A DNA stretch of 64,000 nt, taken from Antedon mediterranea. Its lineage: Eukaryota > Animalia > Echinodermata. Shown in pieces: positions 1-33,662 of this stretch. Positions within the stretch are counted from its first letter, which is position 1. Each line of letters opens with the position of its first letter. The stretch covers positions 24,476,795-24,540,794 of the forward strand of contig NC_092670.1 in the NCBI RefSeq assembly GCF_964355755.1, in the 5' to 3' direction. Below the pieces are notes generated by a model. That model saw only the letters and a list, made by a program, of their open reading frames with translations, was not told where the DNA came from and searched no databases. Made by a program: the position numbers and the translations under genes.

Positions 1-75
1 AAATTTTAATAACTGCAGAATATTTTTAATTTTTAATCATTCATTGTTTTAATACAACTTTACTATAAAGTTCAT

Positions 76-683
76 CTACATGGTCATAAACATTATGACT
101 ACAGTATATGGTTGAGCTATTGTTATAAAAACTACATGGTCATAAACTTGACTACAGTATATGGTTGAGCTACTGTTATAAAAACTACACGGTCATAAAC
201 ATTATGACTACAGTATATGGTTGAGCTATTGTTATATAAACTACATGGTCATAAACTTTATGACTACAGTATATGGTTGAGCTATTGTTATATAAACTAC
301 ATGGTCATAAACTTTATGACTACAGTATATGGTTGAGCTATTGTTATACAAACTACATGGTCATAAACATTATGACTACAGTATATGGTTGAGCTATTGT
401 TATATAAACTACATGGTCATAAACTTTATGACTACAGTATATGGTTGAGCTATTGTTATATAAACTACATGGTCATAAACTTTATGACTACAGTATATTG
501 TTGAGCTACTGTTATACAAACTACATGGTCATAAACTTTATGACTACAGTATATTGTTGAGCTACTGTTATACAAACTAGATGGTCATAAACTTTATGAC
601 TACAGTATATGGTTGAGCTATTGTTATATAAACTACATGGTCATAAACTTGACTACAGTATATGGTTGAGCTACTGTTATATA
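76..683. repeat. Tandem array of ~11 x 56-bp units, each carrying the palindrome GTCATAAA-C-TTTATGAC; candidate subterminal repeat
   Basis: Unit CTACATGGTCATAAACTTTATGACTACAGTATATGGTTGAGCTATTGTTATATAAA starts at 76, 132, 185, 241, 297, 353, 409, 465, 521, 577, 633. Two units carry a 3-bp deletion. Confidence 0.95.
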
Positions 684-796
684 CAATTATGAAATTGGTT
701 GAAAATTAAATAATTTTTTTTAGATTCATTATACATGTAAAATTCCATTAATGTGCACCCTATTGTGACAACCAGTGAGTTGTAAAACTCCCTGCA

Positions 797-3700
797 TTAA
801 CTTTCATTTAAAAAGTCATCTCTTAATTCTTTTAATTTAACAATAACATTGGTAGGCAATCTACTAGTTGGTGTTAAATTAAATATACTTATCACCTCCT
901 CCTTCGATATTATTTCTCGCCATTCTTGTCCATCTTTTTCACACAGAACAAACCGGGAAGTATACGTTCCAGTGTACCACACTACTTCTACCTCATTGTT
1001 ATTTATGCTGAATATTTTGCCTATCTGAGGCCATTCTGTGGGATATCTCCTTAAAGCTGTTGCTACCATAGCACCAACATCGAGTTGCTGTGGTGGCTTA
1101 CGCTTCGAAAATTTACCAATGTGTACCTAGTAGTGTGGGAGAAAGCATAGAAAAGTCATAATCATTTTTCTTACAACCCTAAAAATATAGAATTTTCGTT
1201 GATGCATTTGCTTGATGCAATTATGAGATCATATATCCCAAATATAAGCACTGCTTTAAACTATGTTGCATTACATGTTTCAAAGATGTAATTTTGAAAA
1301 TCTATAATATCTTTATCATACCGGTCTTATTTCATTTTCATTATCCGAGTCACTAATGTCTGTCTCGTTTCCATCAGATTCCTCCCTCATAGGGCTTGCA
1401 TTGTTGTCATTAAAAATGATGTCATGGAGCAAAAATCCCTGTTCATTTCCTAAAAAAAAAGAGTACGTATTAGTTTTAAAAAGTAAATAATATACATTCA
1501 TACAAAATATCATGATATATTTATGCTGAGGTGTTTGTTGCATAAAAGCTGGGCCAATACATTGCGCACCATGCTAATCAGATGCTGATTGATTGATTTT
1601 ATCTTATGAATTAATCAGGAGGCATGTTTCTCTAGTGTACTCCACTAGATATCGTTCATGTTATTTGATAATTTTAGGTTCTCACATAAAATGATCAGTG
1701 GAAGCATGCATTGGTGAATGTGACCCAACATAGTTGTGTGGAGTAAATAGTTGAATTTTGTTATAGCTGCTGAATCTATACTAAAATCAAAATTCTCTTG
1801 CTAACCAAAAAATATATGTGTAAAATGGTGAAACATCACACATGCAATGTAGTACAGTACATACCTTCTGTGATCTCTTCTATATTATTTAAAAATTCCT
1901 CCCACCAGTCACGTTCTTCTATTCGCAAAAAATTTGCAACAGACGCCAGACTTTTTTTTAACTTTGGTATATCTGCATTACTAAAATCAGGAGTACACAA
2001 CACTGGTATATCAGCAGGGCTTTCCTTGAGCAAATATGGAAGTGTGTCCATTTCTCTTGCACATTCACACCAAGTACAATCCGTTGACCAGTTCTTATAG
2101 GACATGATGCATTTTCCGGTTTGAGCCAAAACAAACTTAAACTGGTGTGGTTTGCTGTGGTAACGTATGTCTTGCATGTATGGTACTAACCAGTTCTTAA
2201 TGTCATGCAGATAGGAAATGATACTTGATGTAATCGGCAACTTTTTGTACGAGTTTTCAACAGCACTTCGAAGATGATCAAGTGTAGATGCTCTATATTT
2301 GTTCAGGTATTTGGCCACACATGAAAATAATTGGTCAATATCCTCGTGAGTGTGACCCACCATTAAAAACCCAATCTTTATCTGAAAGAGTAAAAGAAGT
2401 AATGATTTAAAATTAAAACTTTTCAAAGCAAAATAAAAAAAATACATTTTTAGTATATTTCCATTTTTTCCTCATCTAGTTAGACTAGAATGTTATTGAA
2501 TATTTTATGTCTTAATAGATAATTACCAATAGTAAATTAATTACTGTCCTATTAGGCTGGTGGAAATCACCCAACACAGGGGATATTTTGTGGTGAACGA
2601 GAACAGGGTAAATGAATGATGAACTGGGTTCTTTAAAGTGCACTGTGTATACTGTTTTATTATTTATATATCATTTATAAATGTATAGTCATTTACCTTT
2701 CGAAAAATCTTTAACTCTACAAGAAGAGCACATAGGGCAAAAACAAATCTGTTTTTATTATCCTTTCCGCTATTGTCCAACTGCAGATATAAGACTGGTG
2801 GTAGAGGTTGTATCTCTGACAGCACCGTCAGCATAATGTTGCAGGTTAGGTTTGAGTCATGTGGAAACTGCTTTAGGTCAATGAAGCAGTGCCCATGTCG
2901 CCCATGTACCAGAACACCAGTTACATGTGTGGCTAGTTTCCACATCTTCGACGTTTCTTTTGATTCGCAAGCAAAAGATGGTAAATCAGTCTTGCTTTGG
3001 TCCATTCCATCGATAATTATTGACAAATACTTGTTGGGATTCTGTCTTGCTTTCTGCATATGTTTATAGTACTTTCGACGTTCAATACTGAAAAATTAAA
3101 ATCATATGTTTATAGTTTTATTTTGCATTTAATAATAAATTTTTGTTTTGTTTAGTTATATGTTATCTATTAGCCGATGACAAGATGAGACAATGCTTTA
3201 CTTCTAATCTATTAAAATTATTGATTAAATGTAGAGGTTTTTTGTATAATAATGATTTTGTTTATCTTTTCTCTTTTTTTGTTTACAACCACTTTTATTC
3301 ATTCATTGTTCATACACAATAATTATTTTCATTTTCTACCATTTTTCCCCGTTATTTTCTGTTTTATTTCAATCACTCTTAATTTTATTAAGTTAGAATT
3401 ATTTTTAAAAACACTAATAATACTATAGAGGAGGTATACAGTGGAAGCAATAATTATTTTTCCTATCTATGGTAATACCGGGTATACAAGTTCAACAGAA
3501 TTTCTTGTTGAAAGGTTTAAACTACTGGTTTTGTACACAAAATAGGTAGGCATACTTACTTTTGTTTTCGTAAATGCTTCTCTCTCTTCATCATTAGTAT
3601 TTGCCGTTTTTGCTTTTGATTTGTCTTGTGCAGCTCAAATTTTATTCTGGTGCATTTGCTGCATTTTGCAAAACGATTTTCCTATTAAAAAAAATTGAAA

Positions 3701-6700
3701 AAATACAGCACGTAAAAATATAAAATTAAACAAATTTTGCATTCAATATAGTGAATGTAGGGAAGGAGTTGTGAGGCCCATCATAAATGCATCTGGATTG
3801 TACAGTATGTTTTTCCAGTATTTTATTATGAATGAAAATTGAACCTACAGGACTTTCTGCATAACATTGAAGTGAATTTATAAAAATAAGTTAAAAAATA
3901 CTTCAGTCAATGAAGATGACATGGATTTTGTCCATTGGTACAAACCATAATAAGTGTAAAAACGTAAACATACCTCAGGTATTACAATATGCTTGAATTC
4001 AACACACCAAAACTTGTAGAATGTCGCTAATGCACACACATCTTCATTTCTTAGCTCAAACTCATCTTTCATATGCATGTACACATCATGTTTGGTAAGC
4101 GTTGATGGTAGATGGATTTGTCCATTAGTTGGCATTTGATCACCGTATTCATTACAAAATTTAATAAACCAAGCCCGACACTGTTGAGTTGAATTGCTAT
4201 ATACCATCTTTCTGGTGAAGTTGGGTGGTAAAAGATAACAGCATCCTTCTGAAAAGAAATAAAATGTAAATTTCAAATATTAGGAATTTCAAATACTGTA
4301 CTATTTTATTATTGTTTGGTTTAATCCATTGATTAATGACTTATGATCATTTTGCATTATCTTTCTAACATAGTGTTAAGCATATTAATTTTATTGTGTA
4401 AAAATAATTAAACAATAATCAAATGCATTCTATTCATTTAAAAAAAAGTTATTCTCCACTCCTCGTCAGATCCTGCCTATGTCCCTGTATAATACGACTA
4501 TAAGTATAATGGAAAGTAATCTTCACACAGTCACAGTAATCTTTCCGTTTCAGCAACATTAAAACACATACATTAAAAGTAATATTAACAGCATGTAAAA
4601 TTAAATAATGTAAAATGTACTGTAAAACTAAACAATTAATTACCAATAGCTTGCTTCCTTATTTTGTAAAAAGTTGACCGGCCAATACCATTTACTAACA
4701 TCCATGCTTTTGCACAAACTTTGTTAGCACCAACTAGTAGACAGATTTTGGTGGCACCTCCGGATGTGCTGAGATGTTCATTGAAATATTTAAGGATCCA
4801 ACAGCGTTGTTCATATTCGGTCATTGCTTGAAATGCTTCCCTTGTCTGTTTTATTTCTCTAAAATTTAGCATACCAATGCACATTAATGCACAACAGCAG
4901 GTCAAATACAAGTTGTGTATTGGCTGTAGGTGATTCCTTTTCCTTTTTTCTACAGAAAGAATAAACTTACATTATCCATTGGCAAAAAAAACAAACAAAC
5001 AAAATAACAATTATATGGTACCAATTGCGGAAAATGTGATCAGTCAATACGGTTTCAGAAGTTTTGGAGGTTACGTAAAACTAGGTGACTAATTCGCATT
5101 AATATATAGATACTTTTAATTCTTTGACAAACAATTTTTTTTTCGGTTCAGATAATTCAATTTCAATTTTCGAGTGTTCAATTACAGGTTGCATGGATGT
5201 CACCAGCTTTTTGGAGTGCCGGTCGGCAAATTTTCGGGGGGGGAGGGGGGGTAACCCCGGGCATCCCCCCCCCCCCCCGGGGTTTGTCGTTATTTCAGCG
5301 AAACATAAAGAATTATGAAAATAAATAACAACAAATTGCGTCAGGTCTAGGCCTAACCTTGTACCACCGGGGAGTCGCCGTTATTATTCGAGAAAACAAA
5401 AAAACGCTCACGAAATGAATAGCAATAGATCGCGTCAGGCTTAGGACTAGCCTTGTAGACACTACGACCACTAGGCCTAGCCAAGGCTTAGATAGATGCC
5501 CCCAAAACCCTAAATCTGAATTCCACAAAAACGGACCCTTCTTTATTTAGGCCTAATCCCTAATCAAATAATGTAGATAAATTATTAGCCTAGACCTTAC
5601 TACTTGTTGCTCAATATAATGTTCGTGTTCTTTTGCGCGAGAGTTTTTTAGCGTATTCGCGAATTTTTTGTTTCACAACTGTGCGGCTAGCATGTATGTG
5701 TAGTGCATGGCCGGCAAGAACAGAGACACGTGTTTATGGGTTAACTGAAGTTCAGCAACCTGAAGTTATCCCAGGGACGTGTAATTGTACCATGCTCGGC
5801 GATCATAAACGAACGAACTTGCCCGGTCTCACTGAACCATGCGCATGTTTTTTTATTTTTTTTAATAGTTCGTAGAGTACAAAAATGTAAAACTAGTAAC
5901 ATAATATAATTAAAGCAGGGTGACAAAACATTCAGCAATTAAAAATGATTTTGTTTGGGTCTATGTAGTTGTACATTTTTAATTACTGCGTACTTGTTTG
6001 TATTTTTAATCTGTGCAAAATAAAACGCTTGAATGGTCGCTATGTGAACTTTAAACTTGTACACTGTGCTGTGTAGAGCACGTTGTTCGCCATGACTCAC
6101 AAGCTGTAACAATGAATACCAGGGCAGGGTAGGCCTGGTATTGTGTTACAAATAAAGTAACGTACGTAACCACGGAAACATTTGCTGTAGTCTTTTGTCT
6201 TATCTATATGAGGCTAGCTTGTCTGTTATTAACGATGTGCTAGGTAAAATGTTTTAGTACGAATTTTAGTTAGGCATAGGCCTAATATAAATATCGTAAT
6301 GATTAATAAATAATAGTGGTGGTCGGCAGCCTGTAAATCCTGGTCGGAAATGTTGAGTGCTGGTCGGGGCCGACCAGCGCCGACCAGCGTGGTGACATCC
6401 CTGAGGTTGTGCAGGTGCCTTGTTCATTGGACAGTCCTACCTATTTACATACCATACAGACATAACATTAGAACCTGACCATAGAATCAGACACAAATGG
6501 AAACAACCAGCAATTTCCATATCTTTTAGGTACAGCACAACCATCAACATCAAGCACTATTTAATAAAAGTAGTTTTAAAAATTAATGACATATCAAACT
6601 TACCACTACGCTTACTTGTGTGATTAGAGATTTTAATCTCATCATCACTTGATCCAGATGAATTAAGGTAATTAGTTTCTACAGTCTCTAGGCCTCCTGT

Positions 6701-7108: not shown

Positions 7109-9235
7109 TTATTAGGCTGGCTGCTTAAAAGGTAATTCCCTACCCAAGCCTAGATGAAGTTTTGTATAAAGTTGGTAGGAGCCCTACTAAGAAAGGTTAG
7201 CAAAAGATCATGGTTAATGTTATTGCTACTGACCTGCTGATATGTCATCATCGGAAGTATCGACATCGGAAGTATCGACATCTGTTGTAGAAACCTCCCA
7301 TGCTTTTCTCTCTGCTGCTGGAGGGACTTTGGTAGTTGTTACTAGACAAACAGAGTCTATGTTGTAATCAGAAAATGTGCAATTTAAACTATTATCATAG
7401 AAATAATTAGATACATTTATTGTTTAAAAGGGACTGCTAATTTCAATTTTTTATTTTATGATTCCAGATCAATTATTTATTTTACATATCAAAATAATTT
7501 CTTTTTTTTCCAGTAAAAAACCCTTGCCAAGGGGACATTATTTTGTTCCTGAAGCCTTAATAGGGGTTATACTGAACGTAACTAGAGGTGGTCCAGTGAA
7601 ATAGAAAACGTTAACAATGCAAACTTCTTTGTTAAGAACAATCTCAACGCACACAATTGTGTTATAAGTACGGAAAGGTAAATCAACAAAAAAAAAACTA
7701 TACTCAACGATAAATGTCCCAATCGAATACGACATTGCTACCTCCCAGATCGGGCCCATAAAAACATAGGGATAGGCCTAGAGGCGGCCTCTACTCTAAC
7801 CTAGTAAATAACTACATAACATGTCATTGTATTGTTAAAGTTACTGACCTGCTGACTCTGTCGGTATGTCATCATCAGAAGTATCGACATCTGTTGTAGA
7901 AACCTCCCATGCTTTTCTCTTTGCTGCTGGAGGAACTTCGGTAGTCGAAATCCCAGTAGGTGACCCTTCTGTATCATCAACAGCAGAACATCCATTATTG
8001 ATTGATTGAATTGAACCGTTCCCACGTACAATTAGGCCTACTTCATCATCTTCACTTGAAGAATAGTAAAGCATACGCTCAGTTGGATAAGCAGTGCTGT
8101 GTGTTGTTGTACTTGACAAACAGATTCTGTATCGTAATCAGAAAATTTGCAATTTGATTAAATTATTATCATACATAATTAATTAGATATTAAATCAAGA
8201 ATGATTCCACCAAAATTTTGAGTTAAAATAACGATAGTGAAGCATATGAATAGGCAAACTGCCTAAAAATTGACATGTTTTTAGAAACTATTCTCATCTT
8301 CCACCAGAACAGAAAACAACGCCTAGGCTTAGAGTACTTATATACCAATAGGACAGGGTGTATGTAAATGAGGAAGTAATTAGCATGATAAAACAACAAG
8401 GAATGTAGGCAACAAACAATCATATGGCAAGCGTGACGCCTATTCATCAAATGCCTCACTATCGTTATTTTAAATAATTAATTATATGCCACACATCGTA
8501 AAACATTATTGAAAATGTGTATGTTTGATCTCTTCTTTGGGACACCCTTTCCCACAAACAAGTGGATATAGGCCTATTAAGGGGGCCGGCACACATTTTG
8601 AGTGTAGGCCTACCTGGCAAATGGTTGATTACCCCTATTAAGTTTTTTCTATCCCAAACACAGTACAGTACTACATACTAAAATTCCCATATGAATAGGC
8701 CTAGGCTAGAGCCTATCTCTAGCTAGGCTTAGTAATAAGTAATATTTACTAGGCCCAGGCCTAGTACTAGGCCTAGTAGTAGTAAATAACTAGGCCTCTA
8801 GGCCTACCTAGGTATGAACATTCAATTCATTGTTGTAGGCTAGCCGCTAGGCCTATTGTATTGTTACTCACCTGCTGCTGCTGACTCTGTCTGTAGGCCT
8901 ATGTCATCATCAGAAGTATCGAAATATGTTGAAGAAACCTCCCATGCTTTTCTCTTTGCTGCTGGAAGAACTTCGGTAGTCGGAAGAACTTCGGTAGTCG
9001 AAATCCCAGTAGGCGACCCTTCTGTATCATCTACTCCTAGGACTAGGCCTAGGCCTAGGCCTTCTTCATCGTCTTCACTTGAAGAATAGTATAGCATACG
9101 CTCAGCAGTTGGAACAGGGTGTTCTGTCGTGCCATCATCAGAAAATGTGATATTCATAATGTTATTATCGTAGAAATATGCATCGTCTTCGCTTGAGTAT
9201 TGAAGCATTAGCTCAGAGTCGCTTATCATGTTCAT
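797..9235 (-). CDS. Multi-exon Sola1/DUF7869-like DD(D/E) transposase-like protein (~843 aa)
   Basis: Phase-consistent GT-AG exons 9235-8872, 6714-6616, 4949-4644, 4248-3974, 3681-3560, 3087-2697, 2381-1865, 1449-1322, 1126-797 join without stops. Motifs: CCC..C..VCAKAW, RFAKCSKC, SIIIDGMDQSKT, LYLQLDNSGKDNKN, FLMVGHTHEDIDQLFS, and a C-terminal PQIGKI..EVEVVWYTGTY domain. The two 5'-most exons are less certain. Confidence 0.85.
5192..6403. mobile_element. Non-autonomous hAT-like element in a transposase intron
   Basis: Terminal inverted repeats CATGGATGTCACCA / TGGTGACATCCCTG, flanked on both sides by AGGTTG (partial TSD). CGACCAG subterminal repeats; no coding capacity. Confidence 0.6.
7067..7108. 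repeat. (TAG)n microsatellite
   Basis: About 13 perfect TAG units. Confidence 0.95.
7233..9180 (-). repeat. Three diverged tandem copies of an acidic exon-like module (..PAAKRKAWEVS..DTSDDDI..SAG|GT)
   Basis: Copies at ~7233-7400, ~7848-8180 and 8872-9180 share sequence and each ends in a phase-1 donor CAG|GT(C/G)AGT. Confidence 0.85.
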
Positions 9236-11600: not shown

Positions 11601-11655
11601 GCAGAGCTTTCGGGCAAAACTAGCCCTTCATCAGTGTGTAGAAATCAAGCGCTGC
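11601..11655 (-). ncRNA. Hammerhead ribozyme-like motif of a Penelope-like element remnant
   Basis: Minus strand reads GCAGCGCTT..ACA-CTGATGA-AGGGC-TAGTTTT-GCCC-GAAA-GCTCTGC: both catalytic boxes, stem II and a near-perfect stem III. Confidence 0.65.
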
Positions 11656-14913: not shown

Positions 14914-14968
14914 GCAGAGCTTTCGGGCAAAACTAGCCCTTCATCAGTGTGTAGAAATCAAGCGCTGC
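14914..14968 (-). ncRNA. Second copy of the hammerhead ribozyme-like motif
   Basis: Identical to 11601-11655. Lies downstream of a decayed ORF end resembling the Penelope GIY-YIG terminus (W..TLKT...F.LNI) at ~15170-15230. Confidence 0.65.
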
Positions 14969-15849: not shown

Positions 15850-16945
15850 ACGTTAGTAAATCAGGAAAGGTATGGATGATTTGTATAATGATATTGTTTG
15901 TGCTCTATCTAGTGCCTCCAAAATGTGTTTTAAAAATAAGAAAATAAAAAATGGGACCCACATTCCAGGGTGGAATGAAAATGTCGCAGAATGCCATAAT
16001 GTGGCTAGAGAATCATTCCTTCTATGGGTTAATAATGGAAAGCCTAAATATGGTTCATTATTTGAGGCGATGCATTTTAAATGACAAGATCTCAATATAA
16101 AATGAGTTTACGCTAGTGTAAATCAGAAGAAGAACAGCATAGGGCTGATTCTATGGTTAAGTTTTTATTAAAAAATGATTATGCTGATTTGTGGAAAAGG
16201 TTTATAAGTCTAAATCATGTACTCCTGTTCTTACTTCTTCTTTCTTGGAAATTTAAGAAATACTTACAGAATCTTTGGATAATGTTAATGGTGAATATGA
16301 TAATTATAAGTAACCACTGGGCAGCTCATTTTGAGGAGCTGTTTAATTGTGTTCATAATGATAGTAATAAGGATTATGTTCACAGTATACTTGTTAATTG
16401 TAATGATGATTGTGGTTGTGAGGTAAATGTCCAACAGGTAGCGGGCATTATTAAAGATTTATCTAGTGATAAATTGTTCCGATTTTAAAATCTAAATCAG
16501 GTGATATTACGAGTAAAAGCAATTAGGCCTATAGCTTTAGCGGGTGTGGTATCTAAGGTACTAGAATTTGTATTAATTAAATTGTCCGGAGATAGTCTTA
16601 AGTCATCTGACCATCAGTTTGCGTTTAAATCGGGTCACTCCACAGATACATGTATATTAGTCTTAAAACAAGTTGTTGCATTTTATAGTCGGCAAAATAG
16701 CCCTGTATATGCTTGCTTTCTTGATGCCTCTAAGGCATATGACAGATTAAATAACTGGACTCTTTTTTAAAAATTGTTAAACAGAAAGATGCCAACCGCA
16801 ATTGTAAAATTGTTATCGTGTTGGTACTCACAGCAACAGTTTTGTATTAAATGGGGAAGATCTATCTCCCGATGGTTCTATGTAAGAAACGGAGTGCGAC
16901 AGGGTGGAATCATGTATCCGTTACTGTATAATGTTTACATTTCCC
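15850..16945 (+). mobile_element. Decayed non-LTR retrotransposon RT fragment (RTE-X-like, clade uncertain)
   Basis: IPGWNE..ARESFLLW..GKP, RPIAL..SKVLE, QFAFK.GHST, CFLDASKAYDR, NGVRQGGI; broken by stops and frameshifts. Confidence 0.85.
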
Positions 16946-19534
16946 AAGAACCAGTGGGAATATTAAAAGAAAGCCGATCACGTTTACTAACATCTTTTAA
17001 ACGGAGTTTTGGACGACGATATCAAATGCCTGTTGCCACTGAATTGGACTGTGACTTTCATATCTTGTTTTTACGTGATATTAGGATTTATTGCTAAAAA
17101 TCATATACAGTATAACCAAAGTTAAATATAAACTATGAAATATGAGTCTATAAAACATTTTAACTAACGCTTGAACTTTTTTTAAATTAATGTGATTGTA
17201 AATAGGGGCCTACCTGATTTGTATTAAAATGTTTCTATAATTATCAATTATTCCTTATATTCATCTGAATATAAAACAAAAGTCTACTTCCGAATTGGCA
17301 GGGTCGGAGTCACTATAATGTAATTAGCTACCCCATTTGGACGGAAAATAATAATAATAATAACGTTCAAATTACTAATATAATGTTCAGATACTTTAGT
17401 CTAATACCACCTCAGCCCGACCATGGGTTTGGTTAGAGCATTTTTTAGGAATATGGACATAGCTTAGATTGCTAGCAATTTCACTATTAACTCTTGATAA
17501 TATCACAGATAAGTTTAAAGTTTTAAAAAACCGCTGATTATAGTTTCAAGCAATAAATAGATAGGACTGGACATGCCCTCTAGAGTAAAACTAGGTAAAA
17601 CTATAGGAATCCATCCCAAAAACGTATTGGATTTGTTTCCGTTTAAAAAACTTTTCATTTACAATAATTTTTAGTTCATACATTAAATGCCAAGGAAAAC
17701 TAAATTTAGCAATATTATTTGTTTAGGGGTGCAAATAAAAGTGAAAACTATAGACAAGATGTAAAGTAGTCTAATGTACCGTTTCTTCGATAATCTTAAT
17801 TTTACCTAAATACCTATACTTTTATTCAGACATTCCGGATTTTTAATCCTCTAAAAAATAATGTTAGCTAAAAGTAAGAGTGCATTGCCTGGTCTATATT
17901 CCTGAAAAAAGTTTTGTCGTCTCTCGATTTTATGATGCTGTGTCCGATTCTATAAATACGTTTTATATTAACACTGGCAGTATTTATCTATATTAACGAA
18001 CACATCCCTTTTTACTTTCCGTACTTTTGAACCTTCTGAACATAGTCTGGTTATACTGAGATTGTTTATCTAATTGAATTCGTATCATATATTACGTAAT
18101 ATTAGGATATATTGCTAAAAATCAAGAAGTAAATAATTGTTCGGGTTGAGTGCTATAGGATAGAATTACAGTTATGAAAAATGTAACGAACAATACACTT
18201 TAGAAGTTGTTTGAATCCCATCTAGTCTACACGCTTTAAACTATTTTAATTTGATCGTAAATACCTATATTCGTGTCATTGATATTACACGATTGCGACA
18301 TGAATTTTCATCAAAGTATCATACATTAAAAGTTATGCTGGTGATTGTAAATGAAAGCTCTTTTAAATGGCAACCATATACCATACGTTTCTTATAGACC
18401 TAATCCGTTAGAAAATTAAAATACTTTTAAAACTTTTAATTTGCATCTCCTATTTAGGCATCAAAACTTATTGTCTGTTGTCCCTTAGATGAAAACCAGG
18501 CAATCTAGCACCAAAATAATTTCGTAATTATATACTGTAGGCCTAGTGTATATATTAATATAAATCACTCGAATAATGACAATACAAGTTATTGCCTATT
18601 CCCTATCGAAGTTAAAAGTTCTTCTGTATGACTAAGATACAGTCACTAAAGGCAATATTGTATGTATGTTACCTATTAAATACAAGCCCGTACTTCATCA
18701 TTCAACATAATTAATAATTTCGCCATGCAAACTTCGAAGTGTTTTTTTGTATACTTTACTAAGTACTTTCCATGTATTTTAAATAGTCAATTAAGCTAAG
18801 AATATAGAGCACCGTGTTTTTATAGGTTCAGCTTTTAAATGTGTCTCGTTGTGTGCTTTGCATCTGTTTAAAAAAAAATCGTCACATTTGTCTTAGCTTT
18901 CGGAGTCAAAAATCTCGAATGACTTTTATGTCGGTCGAACAAATTTATTATGATGAACTCGTATGTTGATTCTCTCTCTCGGACAACATCTTTATAAAAC
19001 TGGCTAATCGTATCTCAGCGGTATCAGGTCGGCTGTCTTCGTTTTGCTTCTAGATATCGCATTAAGCTATTAGTAGGCCTACCTGACATAACCGAGCTAT
19101 CAAAAAGCGAACTTCAATAACAGAGGTGACTTATTTGTCCCAAATTTAGTTGAGAATGTTTTAAGGCCTAAACGAATTATTATTACAAAATTTAGTGGGC
19201 CTATATTATAAAGTGATTGGTTTAATGAAATTAATAACAAAGACTCGAATTAAAAAGTACAGTATAATTAATCATGCACGTGTAAAACAAATTATTATAT
19301 TAGCCTATATTTTAATGCCAACACTTTTCCAATACGTGCTTAAATTGGCTTTGCTTGTTGCTTCATAGAAAATCATAACCAATTAATTGTCTAACCAAAA
19401 ATGTCATTTATCTCATACACTGTAATATTTGTAGTGAGTGGTAAAAACCAAAACACTCTCCGTATGAGAATGACACAGAGATCAGCTATAAAAAACATTA
19501 AAGTTTTTCTGTAACCGAAATGTTAATTCAACCT

Positions 19535-21875
19535 ACTTGCAGAAATCGCACAGGACTTTTAATGTAGTCCTGTTGCTTTCAAAAATCATGTCGCAATCGT
19601 TTAATATCTTATATCAATGACACGAACATATTAGGTTGTCAAATGGAGCGACAAAACTCGCAAAGACAAAAAAACACTTGGAATTACTACTTAAAGCCAC
19701 AAAACTGTTTGATCTTAACATTAACATACTCCCAGATCAGTAAAATTATTCCATCGACTACCTAAGTTTAAGGTTCAATATTAACCACCATTTGAGTTGC
19801 TTTTTTTTTAGATACAATCCTAATTGTTTATATCTACCAAGCTATCTTCATTGTTTTCAGCTTGTGCCTTGATCCTTTGTTTTTATTTCTTTATTCCAGT
19901 CCACTCAGGCAGTGCTTGTTTGCTTCACATTCTCAATTTTGTCCTTTCACTTATAAAGGGCTAGTGGATTTATATTTAATGTTTTTTTAAATTTCTGTTG
20001 TTTTAACTCACATAATGTCTAAAAGATCGCAATAATAATGAAGCTTTTGAAATGGATGTAAAATATTCATATTCTCAATTTTGTAAAAGCACTTCCACTG
20101 ATATAGTATATTATCCTATTAATTAAATATGACAAGTTGTACAGGTAGTTTCAGTTTTTATTTTCTATTGTTTTTGTATATTTTTTTTTTAAAGTAATTG
20201 TGTTGCTTAAATCATGGAGGTATAAACATATTTTGATATGCTTAAATGTTGTATGTGTGCCACTGTTAAATATGTGTTGCTCCAAATAAATATTATTATA
20301 TTATTATTACAAGGTACAGTATTCATTTCTGAAAATTATATACATAAAAGATGATTTGATCATACAGGAAATTGTTTGAAGATAGAATTTAAAGTTTAGA
20401 TTTAACTTGTTTTAAAGATTTAATGTGGCTATACTTTGATATATTATAAACGAATTTAACAAAACTCTTTGAAATTTATAATTCTATTGAGCCTATATGC
20501 ATGGTACGGTCACTGTTACTCTTTATTCATTGATTTAAAATTCAGGTTAGACTTTTAATTAGAAAGAAATAAACACACCAGGGTTAAAAGGGTTAAATAA
20601 TCCATAATTAAGCGATATATCTACACTGTGAGACACAAAATGCTTTCATAAAATTACACATTTATACCTTTACTTAATAATAATATTTTATAATAATTCA
20701 TTTTAACGGCACTACGCCTACATGATGATCATGGGTAGCTAATGGTATGGGGTTCCGACCCTGTATGCCACTTTTGGAAGTGTTTATATTGATGTTGCAA
20801 ACAATTTCATTATCAAAATTTATATGTAGAAGACAAAACTGATTAATTAGTGTGCATGATGCATATAAGAAGTAATTACTGAAAACTATCATTGTAGTAC
20901 ATTTTTTATAGTATTAGTAGTACTTTATAGTATAAAGGGTGTATAAAGTTGTGCCTTTTCAAGCATGATTTGAGTGATATTTGTTTTTGGGGTTGGCAAA
21001 TATTGCGACAAAATTGTAATGTCCTTGACGTTATTAATGCCTAATTTCCGTGACAGAGATAAACCCTTATATCAATAACATATCATTGGGGGTTTTTTTT
21101 GATCTAATGTGATATAAAGGGATAATCGCAGAAACAGCACAGAACTCCGAATTCCTAAAAATGCTCTAACCATTAGTCCCAATCATAGTCGAGCTGACGT
21201 GGGTTTGGACTTCCAAATATACACAACCTTAAATTACCACTAAATTTCAAAAACGTTGCGCCGGTTCTGAATATTATATCTAATCTGAATGATATAGGCC
21301 TAAATGAATAATACTGATACTTGCAGAAACCGCAAAGAACGTTCAATGTATTGCATTCAAAAGACATGTCGCATTCGTGTAATATCTTATATCAATGACA
21401 CGAACATATTAGGTTGTCAAAAGAAAAAAAAAAACTTGGAATTACTACTTAAAGCCACAAAACTGTTTGATCTTAACATTAACATACTCCCAGATCGGTA
21501 AAATTATTCCATCGACTACCTAAGTTTAAGGTTCAATATTAACCACCATTTGAGTTGTTTTTTTTTAGATACATTCCTAATTGTTTATATCTACCAAGCT
21601 ATCTTCATTGTTTTCAGCTTGTGCCTTGATCCTTTGTTTTTATTTCTTTATTCCAGTTCACTCAGGCAGTGCTTGTTTGCTTCATATTCTCAATTTTGTT
21701 CTTTCACTTATAAAAGACTAGTGGATTTATATTTAAATGTTTTTTTAATTTTCTGTTTTTTAACTCACATAATGTCTAAAAGATCGCAATAATAATGAAG
21801 CTTTTGAAATGGATGTAAAATATTCATATTCTCAATTTTGTAAAAGCACTTCCACTGATATAGGGCTAGTGTTGC
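19535..21875 (+). repeat. Direct repeat pair (~19535-20105 and ~21320-21860) of Penelope-like 3' end sequence
   Basis: Near-identical ~550-bp blocks, homologous in inverted orientation to 11620-11915. Degenerate hammerhead CACTGATATAGGGCTAGTGTTGCCC at ~21855. Confidence 0.75.
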
Positions 21876-23518
21876 CCATAATATTAATAATAATAATTTA
21901 TTTGGAGATTACACTTTTACAACAGTGGCACTCGACCAAATGGAAGGTGCATCCATATATTATCCTAATTAAATACGATTTAATGTGGCTTTACTTTTAT
22001 ATATTATAATAATATTTTATAATTATTCATTTTAACGGCACTTTGATAAAACAATGTTATATATCATACTATTGCACCTTTATTCATGGGGTGACCTACT
22101 ATAACCTTACACTATTATGGAAAAAAAGAAAAAAAAACCAAATAAGAATTGTGAAAGTTAACCCAATGTATCACAGGTGTGACTTGGCTACACAATTGAA
22201 AAATTCATTATATAATAATATCATGTGCATGCAAAAACAAAATTGTATTATTAAATGTGCATATCATTTATTTGTCCAATATAATTTTATATATTAGTTT
22301 AATTTATTTTTCTAACGCCTAGTTTGACAGGCCAACTTTGAAATTGAAATAATCTTTTCGTTCGACACAATATTTCAGAGATACGTGAACATTTGATGAT
22401 GGTCTATCCGATATGACTTTGTTTTTTTGTACATAAAAAGTGGACAATTTTGGTTTAGATCAATGAATGCTTAAAATTGTTTTTTTTTTGTGCTATATTT
22501 TTCAAGTTGATATCTGGAATACTATCAACGCTTTTATCTTATAATACGCGATATATTCATATTTTTTTACAAGAAAATAAAGTATTGATCACTAGCTTGT
22601 TTTTATGTATTTAATAACTATTCTAAGTTCATTTTAAATAGGCGTATGTTTATATTTTAATGATTCATGGTAAACAATTATAAACAGCTTCAATATTACA
22701 CAGTAGGTTATTCAAAAGAGACGCACAATTTATACGGACGTGTTTTTAACGACAAAATTGACCAATCAAAATGGAAATAGTCAAAATACAATAATTTTAT
22801 GTTCATTGGCTACCCCACCAACAACCTAAACTTCAAATAATAAAAGATCCCTGTAATACTGTATTTAAAAAAAAGCATATTTGCAACCGAAATTTCTTAT
22901 TTTATAAATATAATATAAATTTACAATTATACAAAACAATATACAACTGCTTATAAAAAAGGAATTTAATTCAAGAATTTTAATTTAGTTAAAATATCAG
23001 GATTTCTTACTTCAATTTGATGTTTCCTTTAGAGGCGCTAAACTTTTGAATATATGATTTATTTATTTTTTGGTCATATGTTTTTTATATCATGTTATTA
23101 TGTTATGTGCAAATAAAGTATTTACATAGTTGATATATATATATATATATTATGCAGTGTAGCATAGGTGAAATTACGGGAGCCCAATATGAATTAGTTT
23201 GAAATGGTAAAAATTATTTTACTACAGTATAAGTAGATTAAAATATATAAGTTAATCTATGAAAATGATTATATATTACTGGCAGATTTTATCGATCTCT
23301 ATCGTGCAAATAATACTCGTTATCGATATGAAATACGATTTGCACTTGAGTTTTTCTTCCTGCTGATCTGTAGCTTTAGTATAAACAATGTGAACAATGC
23401 CCAAACAGGGAGTTGACTAATAACTCCCTGGCCCAAATAAAAGATCGTAACAGTGTGAAAGTGCGTCACTCGTCACCCAACATTGTTTGTGATCACTTCG
23501 TTATCGCATTTGATAAAA

Positions 23519-26500
23519 ATGGACTGGAGGTTTTGTGTAGAGGAAGACAACATTGCTTATCTAATAATTAATAACACTAGGGCAATAAAGCATTCTGATG
23601 GTGAAAAGTTAGGCAAGGTTATAAAATTTACCAAAACAACTAAAGGCAAAAACTGGCTTAAGGTAAGATTGTTGTGTTCTTCTAAATAATATAATTTTCT
23701 TTTAATGTTTTTAGGGAACCATTCTTCACCAGTCTTATTACTTTATAAAGATGTTTTATTTTCCATTTTGCAGTTTTAAAAAGTGTTTCAAGCCACGCAA
23801 TTATTAGTTTTATCAGTATTTTCCCAGGGGCACAATCTTCAGCTGTTTAATAGGCCTATTATATTTGGATTTTATAGGCTTTCTGATTATAATATATATT
23901 ATGATTTATTCGATTATTTATTTCATCTAATTAATTGAAATGTTGTTTCAGGCCTAAAACTAAATTGTAATATATCTTTACTATAGGACCATTGATACTA
24001 ATTTTGTTGACCATTTTTTTAACATTAAAGTTTTATATATGATTTAAAAAATGCATTTTCATCAAGAGCACCAACACTGAATATTAGGGTGTAGTGTGTA
24101 GACTTAACAACTATATAAATTTCTATGTTTAGTTATTTATTTAATTAAAAACAAATTTGCAATACTATAGATTGTTACAGAAGAAAGCGACTGTAGTAGT
24201 ACGCTTGCTGCAACCAAAGTATTGTGGAGCAAATTCAAACCGGACGAAAATTGCCCATTTTGCAAATGCAAGACAATTGACGACCTTACCAAAACATTGC
24301 AAACATTACGAAAGCGAAAAGCTCAAGATGCTGAAAACGTAACTACAAAGAGAACAAGAATTAACATAAAGACAATCGACGAAACAATCAAAGAAAAGAT
24401 CATTGGTTAGTATATGAAACAATTGTTATTGAAGTTACATACTGTACCATGCCCCATGGACAAGAATAATTATTATCTGCTTTTGTTTTACTGTAGTTTA
24501 CAATTAAACAAACGTTACTGTTTTATATTTTTTCAAATGTTTTGTTGAATATGTCACATAATAGTTATTCACTTTGATCTTGGATAACAAAAACTGTAAT
24601 TTTAAACATAACTCACAATAACTATAGGCCTAATCATGATTAGATTTAATGTATCTACAATTCGTTACGTTAAATTAGTATAATCTGGCTAGATAAGTAA
24701 TTATACGTACTAGGCCTATTAAAATATAAAGCGGATGAACACATTTTTCGAAGATGAACGAACTACAGATATTTTGAACACAGGTTTTAACTTCTTATAG
24801 TTACTCTATTTTCTATTTGTTTTATTGTTATTTAAGTTTCAAACAGTTATTATAAAACGCATAAATAGATTCCGGTCATTCGATTGGACAATTTTCTTTC
24901 ACATGACTACTACTAGCCTTGCAAACCCAGACCTAGCCCGGATGCTAACATACACTAGGCCTAACCTTCCTAGATATTGTGCAAAATACCTATATAAATT
25001 CAAAATTAACTAAAATATAAAAAAATAACATGTGCAGGGTGATCTCCATGCACTCAAGCAGGCAGGGGGTGATGATGTCCTGACACTACCTAGGCCTAGA
25101 CTAAACGGCCTATACTGTATGGCAACGTTAAATTTTTAGGATATATATTGTTATTTAAAAAATAAAACTAATATTAAAATATAATGTCAATCATTTTTTG
25201 TAATTCATATAATTTAATAATGTATCCTTTTTCTGAAAATGTCCAACTTTGTATGTAAAACAATTTTTTAAAATGTTTTTTACTGATGTCGCAACTTGCA
25301 ATTACTGTGGAATTCCCCATTTTAGTAAAAAATAAAATTGGTTTTTAAATATGAAAATCCTATCATAATAATAATACAATGACATATTTATATTAAGTTG
25401 TTTCATATTTGAATTGTGAAATACAGGTAAATGATTTCACTAAATTGTAGTAGTAGGCTGACATTATTAGTCACCGACACCCAGATTAGCCAGGACATAA
25501 GATTACTACGATGCTTGATCTAAATCCTGGGGAGAATACTTCCTTGTTGTATAATCATAAGATGTAATATTTAACAAACTGTCATTTTACGTTTATAGGT
25601 CTAGTTGCTGTGCCAAGAAGTTCGATAGTAGCGCCGCCATCGGACTTACTACTTCGCAAGATCGACCAAGATTTTGTTTTAAAAATTCAAGAAACGCTTA
25701 CAAAGGACGGTCTGGTGAACACGATACTACCTGTATTGCTTAATAAAGAACATTACGATTTCTTTAACAAACAAGAATACGAGAAGTGTATTTTTTATTC
25801 ACTTGGCGGAAATCATTTAAGAACAGCACTGTCAACAATGAGTGAGAATATATTTAAACAATTAGAAGTGGCAGTCTATTTTGATCTAACAAAAACTGAA
25901 TCACTACGTGTGGCATCTCGACATAATTTCGTCACAGGTAATACTCACAAAGCAACTTTTGAAGACAACGTTGCAGTATGCCGTAACATTTTGCAAGATT
26001 ACAATGACAAAGATGCCAAAACGGCTTCGACATGGAGGAGAAAGTGTGCAGAGGCAATTGGCAAACAATCGTTCGAAAAAAAGGTATTATTAATATTATT
26101 TAAACATGTTATTTAGGACTCTAATATATAAAGTTGTAATTAATAATGTAATGGTGATATAATTAATAATAATGTTGTAATTCACTGAACTGCTAATTAA
26201 GCAACTAGTGACAAGGCATAGCAGAGAAGGTCACTTAGTTGTAAATTGCCTAGGATGGAATGGTAAATAATACATTTATACCATAACTCATAATAATCAT
26301 TCATTGATGTTAACCAAAAACATACCGCGTGACAATTGGGCATGTCGCTAGCTAAAATCCAATCAAATGGGAAAAATTCTTGTTCTTTGAGTCATTACTA
26401 TTGTCGTTTGTACAAACGACATTAATGAACTAACAAAATAATTTAATATTCAATTGAAATCTATTTTATTGTTATTATAATTACAGTGTTCAAGGAAATA

Positions 26501-27149
26501 ATTTTGCAACGGCGCAATTGTATAACCTTGCTCGAGAATGATGGGGAATCTGAATTAAGATCCAGATTAGTTCGTTTCAAAGAAGAAATTGAAAACAGCA
26601 TTCAGCTTGAAAATGGAGCCCAATCGGATGGTAAGTTTAAGTTAAATTAACTTTATTGTTTATCTATTGTCATGGATGCTAATACGAAGAACAATATACA
26701 AGCGATATTGTATACATTCAATTCGCAATACAATGCTGATGATTTGATGTTTGTAGTGCAATATACTGCTACTTTTTGTTCAGGAATTTTAAAACGGCAT
26801 ATTAAGCTGTATTCTCATAACTTGGACGGCATACTATGCTATCTGTATTGTAAACTTGTATAAACACAGCCCATGCATTTAATTTTTAATGAATATTCAT
26901 AATACCCATAATCAATTTCTGACCCAATTTGAAACATATAATAATACAAATTTAAAAAAAAAGATTCTCTATTTTAAAATTTTGTTTACACAGAGCTTCT
27001 AAAAAAATTATACAACTATTTAGAGGTCTATTAAATAATAGGGCCTTGGTTTATTCATCATTTCAGATGAGGACGACAGTACAGATGAGGAGGTTGAAGA
27101 TAATGCGGAGATGGCAAATGAGGAGGACGACTACACATTTCCGGGGTGA
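23519..27149 (+). CDS. Multi-exon ParB/Srx-like domain protein, probably internally deleted, with a possible DNA amino-methyltransferase C-terminal remnant
   Basis: Exons 23519-23662, 24171-24405 and 25599-26083 splice in phase and contain LLLRKIDQDFV..ILPVLL..YSLGGNHLRTAL (ParB-like GG.HR box). Exons 26487-26630 (RRNCITLLEND..LRSRL) and 27067-27149 (acidic tail, TGA) splice to each other but are out of phase with exon 3. Confidence 0.7.
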
Positions 27150-27287
27150 AAATAGCATTCATGATACTGGACACATGCCTTGCAGTCACATTTTATATAA
27201 CTTTTCAAATTAATTTATTAAATTTATTCTGTGCCTTGTGATGTTTATATATATACTGTATATACAATTGAGAGACTAGTACTGTTC

Positions 27288-27365
27288 CGCCGTACTACGA
27301 CAGTGGTCTAATGGTCATCTGCATATCAAGCAGAATGTTCCGGGTTCGGATCTTGGATTGGGCAT
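27288..27365 (+). mobile_element. Degenerate tRNA-derived SINE head
   Basis: AGTGGTCTAATGG A-box-like and GGTTCGGATC B-box-like motifs; related fragment on the - strand at ~60300-60340. Confidence 0.45.
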
Positions 27366-27732
27366 TCTCACTGATTTCCTCATATTTATCGTTTAAAATT
27401 AAATAATTAAATTTCACTGGGCGGTTTAGAATTATTCTGTGCCTGTGAAATGTATATATCTTTTAAATATTTTCTACTACAATCACGTATAAATAGTTAG
27501 TAATGCATATAATACTTATTTTACTAGAAGCCGAGTTTAATTCATTCTAAATTAATAACCAGTGTTAGTGAATAAATAGTTAAAATTTATCAGTTCTTTA
27601 ATTCTTTGATGTACGGCTGAGAAAAAACACCTTATGAGTGTATTCATGTTTTGTCATTAATAAAAAGCTTGTATAGCACACTAAAACTTTGTCTACTAAT
27701 TATTTTTACAGAGAAATTCTTGTATTTCTGAA

Positions 27733-28128
27733 GTCATAAATTTTATGACCTAATGGCAGCTTCACAATCATGTCATAAATATTATGACTTATGTGAAAAT
27801 AGTCAATACCTTGAAGCCCGGAAATCACAGCCTCATGTACTATAACCAGTGTATTCCGAGACATAACATGTAGTTTTAAATTGTCATAAATTTTATGACC
27901 TAATGACTGCTAAATTAATGTCATAAATATTATGACTTATGTGAAAATAGTCAATACTGTACCAGGAAGCCCCGAAATTAGTGCTTCCTGTACTATACAC
28001 TATAACTAGCGTATTCCGAGACTTAACATGTACCTTTAAATTGTCATAAATGTTATGACCTAATGACTGCTAAATTAATGTCATAAATATTATGACTTAT
28101 GTGAAAATAGTCAATAGGCAGCTACCAT
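27733..28128. repeat. Tandem array (150-160 bp period) with six GTCATAAA-T-(T/A/G)TTATGAC palindromes, ending at GGCAGCTACCAT; candidate right end of the large element
   Basis: Palindromes start at 27733, 27772, 27883, 27920, 28043, 28080. Confidence 0.9.
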
Positions 28129-28949
28129 GTCGCTCGAATAATACACGCTGTTATCTGCTGTATATAGCCCATCACTTTATAACTTTTTTGTTGAATCTAA
28201 TATATTATTACCGAGTATAAGGTGGTTAGGAGCTAATAATACTAAGCTTTAGAGCTGAGTGGAAATGGGCCGCTACTACTGGTAATTACACCAAAGTGTT
28301 TTGTGTATGATAATCGAAGTGCAGCTAGCTCTGCCAACAAATGCATGGATTAATACATTCATTTATAAAAATAGTTTTTAACACTCAGCTAGCTTTTATC
28401 TCATTATCATAAATGAAAACAAAAAAGAATTGCCCTTTTCAGCTACAAATAAAAACATATCATCCAAACTAATAAACAGAAAAAAAGAAACAATTATTCA
28501 ATCAATATTATAGTTTATCGTTAAAGTAAGTTGATATATTTATGTTTCATTATACATTGTATTAAACTAGTTAATGTCGATGTATACATTTATATAAAAC
28601 AAGGTTTTGTTTATTAATATCTCAGCGTTACTAAAATCAAAATATAAAACAAAACAAATTATACGGCAAGTTTATGCAAATAAAAATAATTATAAGAGGA
28701 AATGTTTGTTATCGCTAAATTGTAGTATTTTGATAATATTGAAATCGATAAAAATCAAAATATGCATATTTTACGATTTTGTATACATTTTAGCTATGAA
28801 TGGCCAAAATTCAAGTAAATGTCGATTTTGTTGAATCTACACAGACGTATAATGTTTGTACTGAAAATAAAACGTGTTAATATCGGGTATCTCAAGAAAA
28901 ACAACATGCAAAATGCCATAAAATGATAATAAGTACATCAAAAACATTT

Positions 28950-29445
28950 CAGAAAAAATTGCTTCCACCAGAATTGTTTTATTCCTCTGTTGTTCAATCA
29001 ATCATTTCTTATTGTATTATTGTTTGGTTTTCTCATATCAATGTAAACAGTAAAAGTCAAATTCAGAGATTAGTAAACAAGGCCAGCAGAGTTATCGGTG
29101 TAGAAGTGAAATCTTTAGATGAAATGTTTAATACATTCATACTTAAGAAATTTGACACAATCTATGCAAGACCCATCACACCCATTACATTCAGACATCA
29201 TTATAAGTAGATCAGGAAGGGTTAGACTGACACAGGAAAAAATATCCACAAACCGTTTCAGATTTTCACCAATGTACATAGCATGCAATTTATTTAACAA
29301 AAACTTTTCAAGATAGTCACTTGTATCATTTGTATTTATTTATATAGTTATCACATCGTATTATTTCTTCTACTCAGGTGCAAAACATATCTCGAAATTG
29401 TTAACAATTTTGACAATTAAGTTATCTTGTATCTTGTATCTTGTA
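28950..29445 (+). mobile_element. 3' fragment of a Rex1/Babar-like LINE
   Basis: FYSSVVQSIISYCIIVWF..IQRLVNKASRVIG..DPSHPLH..SGR..TNRF, followed by a (TATCTTG)3 tail. Confidence 0.75.
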
Positions 29446-30718: not shown

Positions 30719-31651
30719 TCAAATGCCAACTTTTGTCATCTTAATTTCTTGTTGAAAGTTTGGTTTGCGGGAATTGCAAGTAAACATATGTACGATAGTG
30801 TACAGATACGGATTAATGCACGAGTTGATAGGAATTATGAATGATGCCGCCCAAACATATATTTCCTCTGGAATTTTCCACTTTCCGTCTCTGAACAAAT
30901 CCCCATCAATATGACAGGGAACCAACAGCAGAAATCGGTGAAAACTATTATACCTAATTCCCAAGCCCTTCTTGTTAGATCCTTTCGTATTCTTATCTTG
31001 TTAGCATTAGCTCCTGATCTCTTAACAGAGACGAAAATTGCGACATAGCTCGCTGCAATCACGATAAAACCTAAACTATTGAATCCAATAAAATGGCAAT
31101 AGCATACTTCCAGCCTGGCCATCGACTTCTTGTTAGTGGTAGTGCAAGGCAAACACTTTGTTTGCCATAGTAGTTTTCACCAAAATACGATATATTGATA
31201 AAGTCTACTCTGTTTGCAAGTGGAAGAAAACTGAGAACAACCTAAACTAACCAGCTAATACCGATAATAATTTTACATTTTGTACTGTTTAGCCGTTTTA
31301 TAGTGAAAGGGTTCACGGTGTGAACTGCACGCTCAATACCATCAATGTAGTTACAGAACATTTACTGAAGAGAGTAGAAATAGCACCGGCAAAGCTACAA
31401 AAAGGAAACTGCATTAGTAATGAGCATGGCTTGGACCTTATTAAAATTATTATTATTGTTGTCCTTGTTATTAAACCTTCGTGATAAAATAACAATTCCA
31501 TTACCAATGACAGATGAAACACCAATAACCAACATCAATACTCTTAACACTTCTCGTTTTAGTAAGTCTGCACAGGAAGCAAACGCATCTGTTGGTTTGC
31601 AGACATCAATGGCACCCACGAGACAACACAGGCTAAACAAATCTGAATATC
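30719..31651 (-). pseudogene. LRR-type rhodopsin-family GPCR (GRL101/RXFP-like) 7TM exon, disrupted
   Basis: LCC..C.P.DAFASCADLL..VLR hinge, GENYYG..CLP, IVFTDFCCWFP, IPINSCINPYLYT. Several frameshifts and a TM2 deletion; splice acceptor at ~31652. Confidence 0.85.
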
Positions 31652-32864
31652 TGAGAGAATTAAAAAAAAACAAAGTTGTAAAGAAATGTGATTTTGTACA
31701 TCTGTCCTGCCTCATATATTTTTCATTTGCAGTTGCATTTAGCAGCTACTTTTGTACGGATTTAAATCAGCGTAGAAGATGGCATCGACAAGCTTAGCCA
31801 ATAAAGGGGACATTAAAGAGAATCAGTTGGATACAGTTCTGCGAAATAATTGGTAAGTCAACCTCTCCCAATACCGAACTGGTTTCACAGAAAATATGGT
31901 ATTCGGAATGTGTTTTTAATGGTAATGAATTTGGGACTGTTTGGGACTTTCTGGTTTTTGGAGAGTGTCATAATGAGAGAATTGGCTGTATTCTTTAAAT
32001 TGAAGGTCATAAAATATGAATGCGCGTACAGTTCCAAAACCATAATTAAATGTAGTAGGTGCTTGAACAGAAATAATAATAATAGTATTTGTAAGTGTAT
32101 GTGTATCCATGTCTTGTCAATACTTACAGTTCTTGTAATTCCTTCAGTTGTTCAAAAGTTCTATCTCTGTATTTCTGTAATTTGTTTTCCCTTAAGTCTC
32201 TATTAATAATATAAACAACCCGTTAAAACCACAATGATGTTTTCAAGTGAGTCGGTGAGAGATTGCGCAATGAATATATTTATATTGTTGGTTGGTAAGA
32301 TATGCTTTTGACTGGTACGTTTGGTCGAAAAAAAATGTACCAGTATCCGGTTTTTGTTTGTTTAAATTTAATTTACACTATTTGTATTTAAATTAAGTTT
32401 TAATTAATAATTAAGTTATTGCATTACAGCACACACTTATAGTAGAAATCATTGATTTGATGAGACATGGTCTACCATTACCAAGCATGTTTATTCAATT
32501 TTACTGTATTTTTATCACTTTTTGATATTACTTGTGTTGTATTTTGTTTCATATCTATAGGGTATTTATTTGATTATAAATGTTACCCTATTACACCCAC
32601 AACAAAAAATTAAGTGAACGCCCCGAAAAAACCTTTCGCAAACAATAAACGCCCCGGGCGGCGCGTTTATTTGAAATAAAAATACGGTACCTACCAACTA
32701 AATACAAAAATAGAAAGGTCGAATGGTGGACAACAACATTAAAAAAAACAATAGAGACTTCAGACATATACAGAATAAAAATACTCACATTTTTTTCAGA
32801 GATGTCAAATCAGAAAACCCATGGGCTGGTAATGTACTCATTTTGTTCCCGGACAACTCCCTTC

Positions 32865-33662
32865 AAAGCAAATGTAAATCTTTGTGTATCACTCTGAAGA
32901 CAAAGCCTATTATAACCAAATATAAGTTGAATGATCAGGAATTAGATTGTGTTAATTCTCAAAGGGATTTAGGAGTTTTAATTGATAGTAAGTTAAATTT
33001 TTGTTTACATGTTAATTATGTTGTATCTAAGGCAAATAGAATGCTGGGTTTGTTATGGAGGAACTGTAGATTCATGTGCAATGTTGGAGCACGACAGTCG
33101 TGCGCCCCCACCTGGAATACTGTTCAGTCATTTTTAATTCAATTTCTTGTACTCAATCTCAGTGTATTTATAATGTTCAGAACAAATTAATTAGATTCCT
33201 TACTCGCACTTGTCCTAATTATAATGTTTCTCTTATTTATTTCTCTTGAAAATCGTAGAGTTGTTTTTGATATGGTTTTTTTTATACAACTCATTCAATT
33301 CCGTTTATGATTGTCCTATTGTTGCTTTGTTTAAGTTGAATATACCAACTTGTACTCGCAGCAAGTGTTTGCTTCACGTTCCTTGTGGTCGTGTTGAATG
33401 CACAAAACGAGGTATTTTTCAGCGGTTACCTAACACATTTAATAGGTTACTTGCTACTTTTTTGGATATTGATTTATTTTATGATAGTTTAAATGTATTT
33501 AAGGGTAAAATTTTTTAATCTCTTTAATGTTGTGATCTTTGTTTATGTTTTTGTTGTTTATTTGAATACATTTTATAGTTTATTATGTTTAGATTCAACC
33601 TGTTAGTGGCGGTTTCATCGCTGTTGGTTGACAACTGAATCAAAATAAAATTTAAAAAAAAA
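32865..33662 (+). mobile_element. 3' fragment of a CR1-group LINE
   Basis: RDLGVLIDSKLNF..HV..KANRMLG, RPHLEYCS after a frameshift, 3' UTR and A-rich tail. Confidence 0.85.

Follow-up and report, generated by a model that had tools for sequence, protein, structure and literature searches.

What is a gene that joins a ParB-like pattern to a trace of a DNA methylase doing, spliced, in an animal genome? The gene lies in a window of 64,000 nucleotides from the feather star Antedon mediterranea (NC_092670.1, 24,476,795 to 24,540,794; all positions below are those of the window) and matches RefSeq models of the same species. An earlier note on this DNA proposed that it had lost exons and that its full-length relatives would be transposon-borne methylases. 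We find here that the first proposal holds and that only part of the second does.

A gene with an internal deletion

The earlier note drew the gene with five exons, quoting a ParB-like pattern in exon 3 and the word RRNCITLLEND in a later one. Both are present and all five exons have GT-AG borders, but a sixth, a remnant of the penultimate exon, had been overlooked (Table 1). The clash of phases that the note saw is also real: exon 3 exits in phase 0, the exon at 26487 requires phase 1, and the five-exon join terminates at residue 293. A cryptic AG at 26200-26201, within the remnant exon, would restore the frame and yield 383 residues that contain the database protein P0011 exactly; the corresponding splice, 26083>26202, is absent from contigs of the four sequencing runs examined (X1, X4, X5 and X8). 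Splicing of the gene is seen in X5, which we guess is probably RNA, no run being recorded as such. This run has the two GT-AG joints given in Table 1, joins exon 2 to exon 3 and joins exon 3 to an exon missing from the window, which is evidence of splicing and not of expression level. A phase-1 donor at 25938 could also have restored the frame; we ruled it out, as exon 3 in X5 reaches 26083.

The missing exons survive in other copies. A search with exon 3 returned one longer protein among 605 candidates, itself an A. mediterranea RefSeq model, and all nine members of its cluster are Antedon models, lying on scaffolds of four different lengths. The model P0004, of 516 residues, runs from the middle of exon 3 through the missing part into the last exons. 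Its residues 141-416 (276 residues) have no match in the window, and its residues 417-441 are identical to 26187-26261 at 25 of 25 positions (tblastn). Contigs of three of the four runs (X1, X5 and X8) carry missing-exon sequence ahead of 26187, and because they continue differently from the window before that position, other copies are fuller and the breakpoint is fixed at 26186/26187. The exons thought to be lost between exons 3 and 4 are thus accounted for, both in P0004 and in the contigs. A coverage gap at 25544-26186 in X1, X4 and X8 carries no evidential weight. What the window holds is therefore a transposon accessory gene with an internal deletion, which has taken away most of the predicted DNA-binding domain.

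Where they can be aligned, and exon edges excepted, the paralogues are 96-100% identical to the window, and three of them differ from exon 3 at two or three of the 82 residues compared. On sequence comparison, the family in Antedon is multi-copy and young. In X1 the contig depth is about 45-60 across 17000-28700 and 7 at 32199-32895, which is no more than a hint of the multi-copy extent. Each of the Antedon models seen is incomplete; adding the remainder of P0004 to exons 1-3 puts the intact protein at an estimated ~664 residues. Separately, contigs of run X8 over 26187-27305 show that a second organism has this element too, roughly 90-98% identical and full length at the breakpoint.

Table 1. 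Features of the accessory gene and of the element around it, in window coordinates
Feature	Position	Strand	Details
Left subterminal tandem array	37..764	.	56-bp unit; 9 full palindrome copies at 83-600
Sola1-like DDE transposase (DUF7869)	797..4949	-	PF25273, E 6.5e-33 and 4e-36
Transposase exons	4949-4644, 4248-3974, 3681-3560, 3087-2697, 2381-1865, 1449-1322, 1126-797	-	
Antisense stretch of the transposase gene	2836..2964	+	fused to exon position 25793 in P0004 and P0009; 43/43 residues identical
Three repeated acidic exon-like blocks	7233..9234	-	GT donors
Exon 1	23519..23662	+	starts with ATG, 48 codons; splice to exon 2 unobserved in reads
Exon 2, basic linker	24171..24405	+	53% identity to Anneissia homologue; end joined to exon 3 in X5
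Exon 3	25599..26083	+	ParB N-terminal-type domain (GGNH, HN motifs) and start of helical DNA-binding-type domain
Deletion breakpoint	26186/26187	+	removes exons for P0004 residues 141-416
Penultimate-exon remnant	26187..26262	+	holds the place of the degenerate SAM-binding motif I; usable from 26202 through a cryptic acceptor; joint 26261>26486 in X5
Exon with RRNCITLLEND	26487..26630	+	last helix-strand-helix of methylase fold
Last exon	27067..27149	+	acidic tail, stop; joint 26629>27066 in X5
Right subterminal array	27733..28096	.	6 copies of 17-bp palindrome as three pairs
Insertion, LINE-like 3' end by eye	28971..29443	+	skipped by contigs in three of four runs

A Sola1-like element around the gene

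The neighbour of the accessory gene is a transposase gene on the opposite strand, whose seven resolved exons join into a single open frame; its 688 residues include CxxC, DGMDQ, DNSGKDNKN and GHTHED blocks. Its second catalytic block corresponds, by eye and unscored, to positions 82-107 of the published Sola1 profile, the one profile used for comparison (from the accessible part of the supplement of PMC5751038). In the window copy the transposase is potentially usable. The acidic blocks at 7233-9234, on the same strand, are possibly 5' exons of the transposase gene. Its last exon (797-1126) encodes a compact, beta-rich, aromatic domain that looks SH3/Tudor-like by eye and has no Pfam match; a chromatin reader is possible.

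The two genes stand head-to-head between two arrays of a 17-bp palindrome, GTCATAA-N3-TTATGAC. This palindrome occurs 15 times in the 64 kb against 0.07 expected, and every copy falls in one of the two clusters that flank the genes. A further link comes from P0004 and P0009, in which part of the transposase gene, read in antisense, runs into the ParB exon; going by these models, another genomic copy has lost about 22.8 kb, fusing the two. That fusion, the open transposase frame and the flanking palindromes bear out carriage by a transposon, as the earlier note had supposed.

Nested repeats counted, the element is 28 kb long or more. Because contigs of three of the four runs skip the insertion at its right, it probably extends beyond 29444. 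No inverted match was found between positions 1-6000 and the right flank, and the termini were not located; the left end probably lies outside the window. Between the two genes, broken reverse-transcriptase-like frames on the plus strand (15860-17097), LINE-like by eye, are probably a nested insertion. The intervals 10595-15200 and 19662-21857, also inside the element, hold several direct repeats of 150 to more than 300 bp at 95-99% identity, together with inverted copies of one repeat family.

The rest of the window has features of its own. On the minus strand, 30719-31745 contains frameshifted GPCR-like (LRR-GPCR-like) fragments, probably a processed pseudogene, and 39221-40790 contains pieces of reverse transcriptase (PF00078, E 2e-14 and 0.003). 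A duplication at 43376-57322 has a spacing of about 7.8 kb, 75-99% identity and 18-bp coding-like repeats, and a perfect 269-bp inverted repeat surrounds a 183-bp core at 54954-55674, in the manner of a MITE.

A predicted ParB-like half and a probably inactive methylase-like half

What kind of protein would the full-length gene encode? Pfam and NCBIfam gave no match for exon 3 or P0004, PDB sequence searches returned only weak sulfiredoxin matches, and exon 3 folded as a single sequence reached a pLDDT of 40. A homologue, P0013, matched ParB in PHROG at E 0.0056. Our AlphaFold model of P0004, in which only the second half of the N-terminal domain is represented, is confident over the helical region. 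Each of its best 10 Foldseek matches in the PDB is a Spo0J, ParB or Noc protein (E 0.007-0.16, probability 0.87-1.00, 193-203 columns), and the most probable match in a viral structure library is a ParB-like protein (probability 0.97), with no match in either library at E 0.001. VIA-align placed KorB at the top for residues 96-226 of the model (Z 6.4, rmsd 3.7, 97 aligned), tied with designed helical repeats, and a ParB-parS complex at rank four, tied with unrelated helical repeats. The ParB-like fold proposed for exon 3 in the earlier note thus finds support in the Foldseek matches, and the full-length protein is predicted to be ParB-like in both its N-terminal and DNA-binding domains, a likeness that goes beyond sulfiredoxin.

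Homologues extend well outside Antedon. HMMER found 55 relatives among 1.84 billion representatives. Twenty were looked up, of which nine have no species and 11 are named animal proteins, from a brittle star, two acorn worms, a sea anemone, a nemertean and three bivalve genera; a separate homology search added a second crinoid. These sequence matches spread the family over at least five animal phyla: it is present in echinoderms, hemichordates and molluscs, in a nemertean and in a sea anemone. Word-indexed homology searches gave 1, 2 and 1 proteins and are weak negatives. Transposase linkage was examined in Antedon alone. A 56-residue protein labelled Rhodanobacter (P0066), which clusters with an Actinia protein (the cluster of P0047), is likely contamination or a mislabel. 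Phage relatives were absent from a tblastn search with P0013, and five stretches of viral contigs yielded none that was confirmed.

Across 41 aligned sequences, R19, G69, G70, N71, A76, H108 and N109 are near-invariant. Such conservation in homologues from so many phyla bears on whether the gene does nothing for the element, being either a passenger in decay or a host gene that segmental duplication has amplified. Truncations or deletions affect many of the annotated copies, and that of the window has lost 276 residues, as decay would have it; yet, besides the conserved residues, spliced transcripts of the full structure are present in X5 (probable RNA) and the head-to-head layout is fixed and resembles that of an algal element. 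We regard a gene of no use to the element as very unlikely.

The arginine of the ParB GxxR box is tied to the CTP clamp. Only 2 of the 48 proteins with a GGNH motif have Arg at this position, which makes CTP clamping doubtful; from sequence, a CTP clamp in this ParB-like protein is uncertain. Transposases, too, typically bind palindromes in subterminal positions. The palindromes might be subterminal repeats bound only by the transposase, with the ParB-like protein acting elsewhere, through non-specific DNA or chromatin binding or through a ParB/Srx site that hydrolyses nucleotides or works as a nuclease. The arrays do lie close to the two ends, as one would expect of transposase sites; near-invariant R19, N71, H72, H108 and N109, with the GxxR arginine lost, suggest a changed active site; and the sulfiredoxin matches fall at the GGNH motif (E 0.7-1.9). 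The structural matches, however, cover the N-terminal and DNA-binding domains of ParB, Noc and KorB, which are palindrome binders, and red-algal elements are described as pairing a ParB gene with inverted-repeat arrays despite a transposase of another superfamily (bioRxiv 10.1101/2025.02.11.637652, in its accessible part). We consider a role away from the palindromes somewhat unlikely, though it is the main alternative.

The C-terminal half is harder to model. For an Atlas model of P0004 residues 300-485 (mean pLDDT 0.59), all ten structural matches are PF01555 clusters, at TM 0.64-0.75, and three of them are phage ParB-methylase fusions. Our own AlphaFold model, with residues 327-441 below pLDDT 50, did not reproduce the methylase fold, and the lack of methylases in its fold-search lists is uninformative, that part of the model being of low confidence. 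Against a profile built from 11 genuine beta-class methylases, this region of P0004 beat 499 of 500 shuffles and both P0013 and P0065 beat 500 of 500, whereas P0067 scored at chance level (98 of 500 shuffles reached its score). The Atlas matches support the amino-methylase domain that the earlier note had supposed deleted: the lost part is predicted to comprise most of a beta-class N4/N6-methylase fold. Prokaryotic ancestry of the protein is likely, given the predicted fold and the phage ParB-methylase fusions.

The catalytic motifs tell another story. With the register anchored at the C-terminal end, where the KP...S..GD.VLD block aligns to P0004 414-436, NCLGWN falls at motif I of P0004; the same position is YHTRNS in P0013, eroded differently (hhalign probabilities for the alignments that give these registers are 3.6% and 1.6%). 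None of the 71 proteins compared, P0004 included, contains [DNS]PP[YFW], most being fragments and only those of Antedon and four others reaching the region; nor does any of the 71, again with P0004, contain DxFxGxG, most ending before the methylase region. In looser versions of these motifs, the reference methylases keep DxxxGS in 10 of 11 and a DPPY-like word in 7 of 11. MAFFT aligned the C-terminal domains inconsistently, and the motif IV position was judged by eye only. Because P0004 has no DPPY/SPPY and its motif I reads NCLGWN, the methylase domain is probably a pseudo-enzyme.

The earlier note expected full-length relatives to be 4mC/6mA methylases, and had named beforehand a lack of methylase motifs in paralogues as speaking against this; the near-full-length P0004 lacks them, and we set the expectation aside. 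An active 4mC/6mA DNA methylase on animal transposons would now have to use atypical motifs or reside in unseen copies. Few animal C-terminal domains have been sampled, the fold matches N6_N4_Mtase and the phage fusions, and the Ectocarpus protein is predicted to methylate according to the available text of PMC12477816. With the catalytic tetrapeptide absent throughout P0004, its glycine-rich motif I gone and motif I eroded in another way in P0013, an active enzyme seems very unlikely.

Proposed self-recognition and known systems

Our preferred reading, to which we assign a probability of roughly 0.6, is that a giant, multi-copy, Sola1-like transposon carries this gene as its accessory gene, and that the product is a ParB-type protein with a likely inactive methylase fold that would recognise the element's own 17-bp palindromes. 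The exon structure, the deletion, the linkage to an intact transposase, the two-sided palindrome arrays and the loss of methylase motifs are observations on which it builds; the ParB N-terminal and DNA-binding fold and the beta-class methylase fold enter it as predictions. By analogy with ParB on parS, the protein may dimerise on the palindromes. Once bound, it would mark or gather copies of the element, so that transposition is aided or silencing resisted, and the dead methylase fold would serve as a binding, scaffold or reader module. The deleted window copy, without most of its DNA-binding domain, would be non-functional and dependent on other copies.

A broader and more tentative possibility is that giant transposons across marine invertebrates carry a ParB-parS-style self-recognition system, in which a ParB-derived protein loads on the palindrome arrays at both ends in order to pair, shield or license these, and the methylase has become a pseudo-enzyme reader. 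If true, no ParB/parS-like system would have been seen at work in animal chromatin before.

Few transposon accessory proteins recognise the element that carries them, and those of the ParB-methylase type in algae are so far predictions. A young, spliced, multi-copy animal version provides both a protein and a defined 17-bp candidate site, which makes the idea of self-binding testable. It also suggests that the methylase half can lose catalysis, as it probably has here, while ParB residues stay conserved, which argues for binding, and not the writing of 4mC/6mA, as the function that was kept. Such genes should be taken with caution as evidence of 4mC/6mA in animals.

How does this design compare with known systems? 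The closest is Sola1-1_Ec32 of the brown alga Ectocarpus, a 21.5-kb element with an opposite-strand gene for ParB-like and N4/N6-methylase domains, as the available text of PMC12477816 describes it. Like the Antedon element it is a giant Sola1 with nested insertions and an accessory gene opposite the transposase. Its protein has 1104 residues and is predicted to methylate; that of Antedon belongs to an animal, has ~664 residues, has lost the methylase motifs and is accompanied by palindrome arrays on both sides. The likeness described is one of design. The Plavaka elements PAG2 and PAG3 of the red alga Bostrychia share with it a giant DNA transposon that carries a ParB-like accessory protein and a methylase domain, next to arrays of inverted repeats that have been suggested as binding sites. 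In the accessible part of that preprint (bioRxiv 10.1101/2025.02.11.637652), they differ in belonging to the EnSpm superfamily and in dividing ParB and the PF01555 methylase between two genes, with fusions to 2OG-oxygenase and SET domains.

Phage fusions of ParB_N to N6_N4_Mtase have the domain order and folds predicted for the Antedon protein, as far as PMC4738411 could be consulted, but they are intronless and prokaryotic with catalytic motifs intact, and neither tblastn with P0013 nor the viral contigs gave a phage match at the level of sequence. Bacterial ParB/Spo0J, Noc and KorB resemble it in the predicted N-terminal and helical DNA-binding fold and in nearby palindrome arrays, whereas the Antedon protein has mostly lost the GxxR arginine and carries a C-terminal methylase fold; no ParA partner was seen for its gene. 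N4CMT of bdelloid rotifers is likewise a spliced bacterial beta-class amino-methylase fold in an animal. In contrast to the Antedon protein, which is transposon-borne, ParB-fused and motif-less, it is a host gene, active and chromodomain-fused, that keeps SPPY, and the available portion of its study reports no other eukaryotic homologues of the enzyme (PMC8885841).

In the literature searched we found no animal report of a ParB-methylase transposon design, though one may exist in subscription papers, in Repbase entries or in the closed supplements to the Bostrychia preprint; in the accessible text of PMC10294476, ParB and methyltransferase have 0 mentions each. What is new against these systems is that the algal design is now seen in animals, with its catalysis probably lost.
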